Assembly (NCBI GenBank): GCA_023129075.1
Contig: JAGMCT010000023.1
Coordinates: forward strand, 811-64,810
DNA: 64,000 bases
Origin: Candidatus Micrarchaeota archaeon
Lineage (GTDB): Archaea; Micrarchaeota; Micrarchaeia; Anstonellales; Bilamarchaeaceae
Reading direction: 5' to 3'
Position numbers and translations under genes: made by a program. Below are positions 52,845 to 53,200 of the stretch, piece by piece (positions within the stretch are counted from its first letter, which is position 1; the number at the start of each line of letters is the position of its first letter). The notes beneath the pieces were generated by a model. It had not been told where the DNA came from, did no database searches, and worked only from the letters and a program-made list of their open reading frames with translations.

Positions 52845-53041
52845 TGCAGGGGAAGGGATTCGAACCCTTGAAGGCAATAAGCCACAGGATATCCTAAACT
52901 TTCTTAGTGCAGATTCTTTGGCAAGCCATCCAAGGCAAATAAAACCTTGGTTTTTAGAAGCTTTCTTGGTGAAGCTTCTTTGGCAAACCGAAAGAAGGTT
53001 CCTTAAGTCCTGCGCGTTTGACCAGACTCCGCCACCCCTGC
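52845..53041 (-). tRNA. tRNA-Leu (anticodon TAA), class II, with ~111-nt intron at 37/38
   Basis: Exon 1 GCAGGGGTGGCGGAGTCTGGTCAAACGCGCAGGACTTAAG and exon 2 ATCCTGTGGCTTATTGCCTTCAAGGGTTCGAATCCCTTCCCCTGCA fold with anticodon stem CAGGA/TCCTG, loop CTTAAGA, long variable arm and canonical T-arm. The intron (52891-53001) has internal GCCAAAGAAGCTTC-like repeats. Confidence 0.6.
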
Positions 53042-53200
53042 GAGTTTGCGAGCAAGGGGCTTGAGTTGCAAAGCAACTTTGCGGGACAAGCGTTTTCCGA
53101 ATGGAAAACGATGTGCCATTTCCGAAAGGAAATGTGCATATCACCGAAAAGGTGATTCAACCGCCACCCCTGCGAGTCAGTGAGCAAGGGATTTGTTTTC
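53042..53200 (-). repeat. upstream array of four short hairpins plus a duplicated tRNA-5'-end segment
   Basis: On the tRNA strand, CCCTTGCTCACTGACTCGCAGGGGTGGCGG is duplicated. It is followed by hairpins TTGAATCACC-TTTTC-GGTGATA, CATTTCC-TTTC-GGAAATG, CGTTTTCC-ATTC-GGAAAACG and AGTTGC-TTT-GCAACT. The first hairpin shares its motif with the tRNA-Cys repeats. Confidence 0.6.

Follow-up and report, generated by a model that had tools for sequence, protein, structure and literature searches.

How does the tRNA-Leu(UAA) gene of an archaeon with a compact genome come to carry a 111-nucleotide (nt) intron and, upstream, a copy of its own 5′ end followed by an array of short hairpins? We address this question for a window of 64 000 nt, the whole stretch of DNA that was analysed, from Candidatus Micrarchaeota archaeon (GenBank assembly GCA_023129075.1, contig JAGMCT010000023.1, positions 811–64 810 of the forward strand; coordinates below are those of the window). 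An earlier description made from the letters alone (the sequence-only reading) had reported the gene, its intron and the array and had noted that one hairpin recurs at the tRNA-Cys repeats. Its observations are confirmed as a whole; of its interpretation, the tRNA, the intron and the hairpin shared with tRNA-Cys stand, and the bulge–helix–bulge (BHB) splicing motif for which it proposed a check can form, but the pattern extends beyond a pair of tRNA 5′ ends. Direct repeats bracket hairpin patches at five places in the window. The explanation that we favour, while giving it somewhat less than an even chance, is that the patches are small palindromic DNA modules that insert with a 12–30-nt duplication of their target and are tolerated where extra RNA is removed.

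The gene encodes a class II tRNA-Leu(UAA) on the minus strand (53041–52845), with the intron between nt 37 and 38. ARAGORN misses it at default settings but with intron search reports tRNA-Leu(taa) c[52845,53041], and its score with the Rfam tRNA model, 41.7 bits, exceeds the gathering threshold of 29; the class, intron length and intron position given by the sequence-only reading are thus borne out. The gene and its immediate surroundings contain the following parts.

53002–53041, minus strand: exon 1 of tRNA-Leu(UAA), nt 1–37 (ARAGORN intron search; Rfam tRNA model)
52891–53001, minus strand: intron of tRNA-Leu(UAA), 111 nt, at 37/38, with hBHBh′ motif (ARAGORN; constrained fold)
52899–52986, minus strand, within the intron: direct repeat of 26 nt (52961–52986 and 52899–52924, 23/26 identical) around the hairpin CCAAGG-N9-CCTTGG at 52930–52950 (BLAST of the locus against the window; sequence read)
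52845–52890, minus strand: exon 2 of tRNA-Leu(UAA), nt 38–73 (ARAGORN; sequence read)
52790–52834, minus strand: 3′ trailer with two GC-rich hairpins, GGAGGGG..CCCCTCC (52816–52834) and GAGGGTC..GACCCTC (52790–52808), then TTTT

The spliced exons give a valid class II tRNA by both ARAGORN and the Rfam model; the discriminator is A and no CCA is encoded. In the predicted fold the intron junctions can form a canonical BHB motif of helix, 3-nt bulge, 4-bp helix, 3-nt bulge and helix, consisting of the anticodon stem CAGGA/UCCUG, the 3′ bulge AU↓A, a central helix of C32-G, U33.G, U34-A and A35-U, the 5′ bulge AG↓G and an outer helix AAC/GUU, with both predicted splice sites after the second bulge nucleotide. 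Constrained to this motif, the fold has an energy of −36.6 kcal/mol, within 2 kcal/mol of the unconstrained minimum (−38.6 kcal/mol). The folding model thus places the intron in the canonical archaeal BHB class, with which it agrees in every feature that can be tested, and the tRNA itself is ordinary, its gene presumably a working one. The internal repeats that had been noted in the intron are real. No match to a C box (RUGAUGA) or a D box (CUGA) was found in the 111 nt, and an intron-encoded C/D-box guide RNA was rejected.

Upstream of the gene, the tRNA 5′ segment had been described as duplicated and followed by four short hairpins. The 16-mer CTCGCAGGGGTGGCGG occurs exactly twice in the window (53029–53044 and 53161–53176, minus strand; 0 in 100 shuffles), and tRNA nt 1–13 are indeed copied; the repeat is, however, not the tRNA 5′ end alone, as BLAST of the locus against the window extends it to 30 nt (27/30 identical), CCCTTGCTC(ACTG/GCAA)ACTCGCAGGGGTGGCGG, of which 17 nt are leader. 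Four perfect hairpins were located between the copies.

53206–53213, minus strand: TATA-like CATATTAT, putative promoter, centred about 36 nt upstream of G1 of the distal copy (sequence read)
53161–53190, minus strand: distal copy of the 30-nt direct repeat, leader part CCCTTGCTCACTGACTC plus tRNA nt 1–13
53059–53160, minus strand: 102-nt segment between the 30-nt repeats, with hairpins H1–H4
53140–53160, minus strand: H1, TTGA plus ATCACC..GGTGAT (hairpin at 53140–53156)
53117–53134, minus strand: H2
53091–53110, minus strand: H3
53064–53078, minus strand: H4
53029–53058, minus strand: proximal copy of the 30-nt direct repeat, leader part CCCTTGCTCGCAAACTC plus tRNA nt 1–13

H2 and H3 make up a double-hairpin core (53089–53137), and the RNA fold of the upstream region has a z-score of −4.2. 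By sequence reading, CATATTAT has no rival as an AT-rich, promoter-like box in the upstream region, with none in the 40 nt before the real tRNA; transcription of the array would accordingly yield a leader of about 145 nt.

The hairpin H1 links this array to a second locus. The sequence TTGAATCACC has two exact matches in the window, one in H1 (53151–53160) and one in the first tRNA-Cys unit (29493–29502), 23.6 kb apart. Both directly follow a tRNA 5′ fragment and both are followed by GGTGATA after 3–5 nt; the hairpin (10 + 7 nt, 17 nt in all) is identical at the two loci, as the sequence-only reading had claimed.

29283–29370, minus strand: tRNA-Cys(GCA) with a 17-nt intron (ARAGORN with intron search)
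29371–29509, minus strand: array preceding tRNA-Cys(GCA), made up of three units in tandem (49, 41 and 49 nt)

Each unit consists, in order, of tRNA nt 1–8, TTGAAT-hairpin-ATAG, a strand resembling the 3′ side of the acceptor stem and a spacer. Changes among the unit stems are paired (CACC/GGTG, AACGC/GCGTT, CGCC/GGCG). A search of the window found no TTGAAT hairpin at tRNA-Val, Gln, Pro or Leu(CAG); the shared hairpin is thus absent from these other tRNA loci, while its motif recurs in a tRNA-Leu intron of another micrarchaeote (locus L131, below). A K-turn reading of the TTGAAT hairpin was rejected by eye, the tandem G.A pairs being out of register, and matches in viral contigs to TTGAATCACC-N-GGTGATA (30) and TGGCACAYCGTTTTYC (81) were discarded as the chance level for 16–17 specified bases. 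At default settings ARAGORN misnames 29283–29370 as tRNA-Leu(caa).

A copy of a tRNA 5′ end followed by a TTGAATCACC hairpin had been proposed as an architecture of two unlinked tRNA loci. It is shared with tRNA-Cys as stated, but the pattern is wider and includes a tRNA 3′ end, a protein-gene junction, an intron and other archaea. Two further bracketed arrays in the window are as follows.

29734–29818, plus strand: tRNA-Leu(CAG)
29819–29988, plus strand: hairpin array of 170 nt with four to six hairpins, double-hairpin core at 29862–29910
29989–30003, plus strand: second copy of the last 15 nt of tRNA-Leu(CAG), ATCCCTTCCCCTGCA
1191–1203, plus strand: left bracket GAGAGATAATATG, containing the stop codon of the upstream gene
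1204–1313, plus strand: hairpin array between protein genes, double-hairpin core at 1234–1281, GC hairpin at 1287–1307
1314–1328, plus strand: right bracket GAGAGGGATAATATG, containing the ATG of the downstream gene

The array at 1204–1313 lies between an AIR-synthase-like gene and an IF-2B-family gene (Pfam) and is bracketed by a 13-nt repeat that spans the stop/start junction; taking out the insert and one repeat at 1204–1328 restores a compact TAA-T-ATG gene junction. For the bracketed patches in general, BLAST against the window shows no resemblance of the intervening material to the neighbouring gene. The double-hairpin cores at 1234–1281, 29862–29910 and 53089–53137 share the pattern (CAAATTYC-N4-GRAATTTG)-GCAYAYC-(GWWWWYC-N3-4-GRWWWWC) with paired stem changes, and at these three loci the core is bracketed by three unrelated repeats. 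Leave-one-out searches with the core return the omitted copy at E = 0.01–0.16. Clusters of at least three hairpins number three in the window, compared with a shuffle mean of 0.52 (maximum 4). The Rfam scan returned only tRNAs, 5S rRNA and one sub-threshold CRISPR-repeat match on a palindrome, with no family for any array; the sub-threshold match is that of the first hairpin of the 1191–1328 array to CRISPR-DR17 (24 bits against a gathering score of 42, E = 0.013).

From these features we infer an insertion origin and mobility for the modules, which would be small non-autonomous insertions of 15–22 nt each, almost perfectly Watson–Crick palindromes, in the flanks and intron of tRNA-Leu(UAA). 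Each patch would be flanked by two direct copies of whatever sequence received the insertion: leader plus tRNA nt 1–13 at tRNA-Leu(UAA), tRNA nt 1–8 at tRNA-Cys, the last 15 nt of tRNA-Leu(CAG), the stop/start junction and a stretch of the intron. The copy on the gene side would keep the gene intact, and unequal exchange between duplicates would have amplified the tRNA-Cys unit to three tandem copies. In a compact genome such inserts would persist where they are harmless, some of them in intergenic gaps and others where the extra RNA would be removed, from leaders by RNase P, from trailers by tRNase Z and from introns by the splicing endonuclease. At tRNA-Leu(UAA), transcription would begin from the TATA-like box upstream of the distal copy, RNase P would cut the leader with its four hairpins off at the real G1, and the intron would leave at its canonical BHB motif; one hairpin-module insertion would account for part of the length of the intron. 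An endonuclease gene lies in the window.

23040–23504, minus strand: 154-residue open reading frame (ORF) with a tRNA-intron endonuclease catalytic domain (Pfam PF01974, 28.4 bits against a cutoff of 27)

From its domain, the product would be the enzyme expected to cut the tRNA-Leu(UAA) intron. The small size of the ORF suggests a single-unit subunit, not a three-unit enzyme; a three-unit endonuclease has reportedly been described for Micrarchaeum.

The stems of the inserts at tRNA-Leu(UAA) contain no G.U pair among 34, all being Watson–Crick, and in five of seven regions tested the antisense strand folds at least as well as its sense counterpart; neither G.U pairs nor a sense-strand bias mark the inserts as products of selection on RNA. 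Near-pure Watson–Crick pairing and antisense folding are therefore better fitted by DNA palindromes than by RNA-selected helices. Several observations nevertheless weigh against insertion of mobile modules. The duplicated targets vary from 12 to 30 nt, unlike the fixed duplications of classical transposases, and sequence reading reveals no terminal inverted repeats beyond the TTGA shared next to the end hairpins. With respect to local transcription, the three cores and the four H1 copies are all sense-oriented, a possible sign of an RNA role, and the paired stem changes could reflect selection on RNA. Homology of the core among its three loci is statistically modest and, as a sequence comparison, suggestive rather than proven, and hairpins in the window are overall no more numerous than chance predicts (91, compared with 91.4 in shuffles). 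Domain searches of the 66 ORFs of the window detected neither a transposase or integrase nor Cas1 or a reverse transcriptase. All assemblies are identical, so that they show no empty site and no variation in copy number. The aRF1 encoded in the window is identical to an NCBI protein from a Candidatus Micrarchaeota archaeon, but the next-best match, from the nearest relative, is only 65% identical.

Related genes offer a view of how such modules are distributed. Two scans with tRNA-Leu 22-mers provided the archaeal and metagenome loci that carry L-numbers below. The scan with the 3′ 22-mer returned at least 120 loci across many archaea and, being too general as a homologue search, was used as a survey; the source genome of the window is not among the matches listed. 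A 22-mer ending at G37 returned 104 metagenome loci. Among the 62 tRNA-Leu(UAA) genes that ARAGORN can call, 21 have no intron, 38 have one of 10–45 nt and three have introns of 56, 67 and 93 nt. The sequence-only reading had called 111 nt unusually long, which holds against this archaeal sample (0–93 nt) but not within the organism's own lineage, in which L277 reaches 115 nt and L131 about 200 nt. The Micrarchaeota loci L222 and L314 have near-identical exons and a 56-nt intron. The 115-nt intron of L277, also from Micrarchaeota, consists of an L314-type 56-nt backbone and an insert, about 60 nt long, in which the GC hairpin GGAAGGGGGacaCCCCCTTCC lies; the same gene has a 44-nt insert in its T-loop, and its leader reads GCAGGGGG, two hairpins and then CAAGCCCCTGCT, mirroring the ...CAAGCCCCTTGCT of the window. 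In L131 (Micrarchaeota), a tRNA-Leu(CAG) at 1093–1426 has what appears to be a hairpin-rich insertion of about 200 nt after the anticodon; it contains TTGAATTTTCCttatcGGAAAATTA. GC hairpins of the type in the window trailer are found at 1287–1307, in L222/L314 (leader and trailer of L314) and in the L277 intron. The modules thus differ in kind and place among related tRNA-Leu(UAA) genes, which implies fast turnover. In this clade hairpin modules would so appear to move among leader, trailer and intron, and long introns to arise by insertion into shorter ones.

Other oddities were seen at these loci. The L131 tRNA-Leu(CAG) is not callable by ARAGORN and has an apparent D-loop insertion of about 22 nt, possibly a third in the variable arm, and its leader holds three more hairpins. 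Homology between the T-loop inserts of L277 and L314 was considered and set aside as weak (p about 0.01). About 90–300 nt downstream of the tRNA-Leu(UAA) of L314 (also in L222) lies a fragment comprising the T-arm and the 3′ strand of the acceptor stem, with a 63-nt interruption in the T-loop; it is preceded by a strong TATA-like TTTTTTAATTAAATATTTATA, and a third partial copy lies further downstream. This fragment could be a displaced, intron-bearing 3′ end. In many of the metagenome loci (L259, L260, L281, L284, L286, L311, L312 and others), no 5′ acceptor strand can be recognised immediately before the D-arm of the tRNA-Leu(UAA) (...cctcag/AGCGAAGCCTGG...); further non-canonical introns or split genes, not callable by ARAGORN, may account for this.

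Copies of tRNA ends were then counted for 308 archaeal tRNAs sampled at the scan loci. A copy of the gene's own 3′ 9-mer occurs within 300 nt downstream in 17 of the 308 (0.4 expected), and a copy of its own 5′ 8-mer upstream in nine (1.4 expected). In an 11-mer search over about 3 kb of flank, 15 of 20 downstream 3′-end copies are 40–170 nt from the gene and 10 of 11 upstream 5′ copies are at 47–322 nt; since they cluster near the genes, they are not random remnants of kilobase elements. A homologous filler of about 70 nt (E = 6e-15) stands behind a tRNA-Trp (L287, 2373–2447) and a tRNA-Ser (L302, 4759–4841), followed in each case by a repeat of the 3′ end of the tRNA concerned (19 and 27 nt). 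To judge from the sequences, this arrangement points to duplication of the target and not to a common attachment site. L302 has one more copy of the filler at 10800–10867, near the tRNA-Leu(UAA) match of that contig. In Thermoplasmatota bins, one or two units of 125–161 nt, some of them tandem, lie directly upstream of tRNA-Leu(CAG).

L140, 1336–1657: Thermoplasmatota unit or units
L156, 838–996: the same
L227, 5499–5656: the same
L172, 245–373: the same
L182, 321–581: the same
L166, 2234–2357: the same

The order is a direct copy of tRNA nt 1–23/25, two or three hairpins, an inverted copy of nt 1–30 and a spacer. The units fall into two sequence families, neither with an Rfam match, and their closing stem co-varies with the local tRNA (6/42 pairs compensatory among four sequences). 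The architecture of hairpins plus duplication is therefore recurrent across archaeal phyla and appears undescribed: no account of short-range tRNA-end duplications with hairpin fillers was found in the literature outside subscription journals.

Co-variation of this kind bears on the first rival explanation, that the units are functional structured RNAs on tRNA promoters. Opening with the 5′ acceptor strand of the tRNA and closing with a complement to it, each would fold into a tRNA-like minihelix that could be released by RNase P and tRNase Z or could guide or slow maturation of the pre-tRNA. Acceptor-like stems of 6–7 pairs can close the units of tRNA-Cys and of tRNA-Leu(UAA) alike, L277 has GCAGGGG...CAAGCCCCTGCT where the window has CAAGCCCCTTGCT, and the paired stem changes, the uniform sense orientation of the copies and the compensated closing stem of the Thermoplasmatota unit (about 135 nt) all suit such a role. 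We nevertheless consider it unlikely for the window. Besides the lack of G.U enrichment, of a sense-strand stability advantage and of any Rfam family, one array lies between protein genes and another downstream of a tRNA, and content and position vary among related tRNA-Leu(UAA) genes. The inverted copy of the tRNA 5′ region that characterizes the Thermoplasmatota units is matched in the tRNA-Leu(UAA) unit of the window by only 7 + 4 nt of complementarity, which is not significant alone.

A second rival dispenses with mobility altogether. Replication slippage or repair would generate duplications at highly transcribed, structure-prone tRNA genes, templated correction would perfect near-palindromes, and neutral drift would do the rest. 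This accommodates the variable length of the repeats, the tandem tRNA-Cys array, the perfect Watson–Crick stems, the modest similarity of the cores and the lack of a mobility gene in the window. It does not readily accommodate the identical 17-nt H1, which stands at the same place after a tRNA 5′ copy at two distant loci and needs transfer, nor the clearly homologous fillers behind different tRNAs in L287 and L302, nor material between repeats that is unlike the neighbouring gene, and we hold this explanation, too, to be unlikely.

A little less probable, in our view, is an origin of the repeats as duplicated attachment sites of integrase-type mobile elements, viruses or plasmids, that entered tRNA genes and were later almost wholly deleted. 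Integration classically leaves partial copies of a tRNA around the DNA inserted (PMC9897764), Caldiarchaeum provides an example with a 5′ fragment (PMC3293823), and several 3′ repeats start in the T-loop, as a T-loop crossover predicts (ATCCCTTCCCCTGCA; L291, L235, L243, L287). The inserts, however, are merely 37–170 nt with no recombinase in the window, and the distances bunch at 40–170 nt instead of spreading over about 3 kb as those of random deletion remnants would; the array at 1204–1313 does not stand at a tRNA and has a repeat of its own, the tRNA ends that bracket homologous fillers differ, and a circle of 49–185 bp is implausible as integrating DNA. That the duplications are artefacts of metagenome assembly is extremely improbable: two short contigs of other assemblies do start at or inside the tRNA-Leu(CAG) array, but the loci are identical in independent assemblies (NCBI GCA_030628865.1, contig DAOVQD010000006.1; two European Nucleotide Archive metagenome assemblies; Logan), and the structures are therefore real.

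Insertion of palindromic modules with target duplication remains the explanation that we prefer. To our knowledge, the sole documented model for the odd-position introns and split tRNAs of archaea involves kilobase mobile elements. The present loci show a smaller-scale event, in which a gene end is duplicated and hairpin filler added while the tRNA stays intact and the extra sequence sits in removable leaders, trailers and introns. We suggest, quite tentatively, that archaea, and especially DPANN and Thermoplasmatota, harbour an undescribed process or class of elements that duplicates 10–50 nt of a tRNA gene end and leaves 40–170 nt of hairpin-rich filler, and that the loci are caught intermediates of tRNA intron gain. 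Decay of the gene-proximal copy would then turn the structure into a non-canonical intron in the D-loop or T-loop. Some units, for example those of Thermoplasmatota, may have become structured RNAs in their own right. If general, the process would provide a testable route to long and non-canonical introns and would explain why gene finders miss or mistype such tRNAs; the modules may also make up a novel family of small palindromic elements, in genomes that are otherwise regarded as nearly repeat-free.

Elsewhere in the window, a lone 5S rRNA gene (29572–29686) lies between the tRNA-Cys array, on the opposite strand, and tRNA-Leu(CAG); no 16S or 23S rRNA was found in the window. Four consecutive ORFs of about 520 residues (10500–16870) and two ORFs of 533 and 318 residues adjoining tRNA-Leu(UAA) (49957–52520) have no Pfam match. 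At 33749–34809 a nucleotidyltransferase-domain ORF adjoins a HEPN-domain ORF in what looks like a toxin–antitoxin pair, and the region 21146–23068 encodes an RNase H, a phage-type metallopeptidase and a DNA methylase. About 10 kb of added contig, which brings the genome sequence examined to 74 kb overall, contains no further tRNA or module.

Among known systems, the intron most resembles the archaeal BHB introns at 37/38, with which it shares position, a 4-bp central helix, two 3-nt bulges and normal class II exons, and an endonuclease subunit gene is present in the window; it differs in its length, 111 nt compared with 10–45 nt in most sampled tRNA-Leu(UAA) genes, part of which is taken up by a hairpin and the duplication that flanks it. 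In haloarchaea the long tRNA-Trp intron carries a C/D-box guide RNA, whereas this intron has no C/D boxes. The array itself was also considered as a BHB intron of a split, permuted or non-canonically interrupted tRNA and rejected: the 30-nt repeat has no self-complementary 4-mer, and the 15-nt repeat has only a terminal TGCA, at which cuts would fall outside the tRNA. A CRISPR array was rejected because the variable parts of the tRNA-Cys units are 11–13 nt compared with 26–72 nt for spacers, no cas genes are found in the window and the Rfam match is only sub-threshold. In mascRNA and in tRNA–snoRNA (small nucleolar RNA) and tRNA–sRNA (small RNA) co-transcripts, tRNA-like handles release small RNAs; as in those systems, an acceptor-like stem next to a tRNA could here be cut by RNase P or tRNase Z, but the stems in the window are short or imperfect and the elements are not conserved among relatives.

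Insertion by IS200/IS605 elements uses a fixed 4–5-nt target without target duplication, and palindromes derived from them were rejected because every patch is bracketed by a 12–30-nt repeat. Repetitive extragenic palindromic (REP) elements have no target-duplication brackets and depend on RAYT transposases. The bacterial REP elements and bacterial interspersed mosaic elements resemble the arrays as short imperfect palindromes, with paired arm changes, clustered in transcribed non-coding DNA, but the arrays of the window have target duplications, occur in a DPANN archaeon, concentrate at tRNA genes and are accompanied by no RAYT in the window. A test for miniature inverted-repeat transposable elements or REP-type elements gave hairpin clusters at 4–5 loci, with inter-locus homology strong for H1 and modest for the core (74 kb). 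Casposons insert at tRNA-Leu genes in Methanosarcina, with target duplications of 14 nt, and of up to 35 nt in other casposons; the duplication in Methanosarcina mazei starts at CGCA and runs into the AT-rich trailer (PMC4779613). The tRNA-Leu 3′-end target is alike, but here the duplicated stretch stops precisely where the tRNA does, and the inserts are smaller by a factor of about 100. A casposon was rejected, there being no Cas1 or PolB in the window and no terminal inverted repeats seen, repeats of 12–30 nt that are not fixed and a duplication that differs in position and sequence. The arrays also resemble the tRNA fragments left by integrated mobile elements in archaea (PMC9897764; PMC3293823), an origin of tRNA fragments proposed by Randau and Soll, as cited in PMC4390854. 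Both have a partial copy of a tRNA end in direct orientation, with foreign-looking DNA between the copy and the intact gene. Integrated elements, however, comprise kilobases with genes, whereas the inserts of the window are short runs of hairpins with no integrase and include one non-tRNA case; and where integrated elements would be expected to share an attachment sequence, here the same type of filler is bracketed by different targets.

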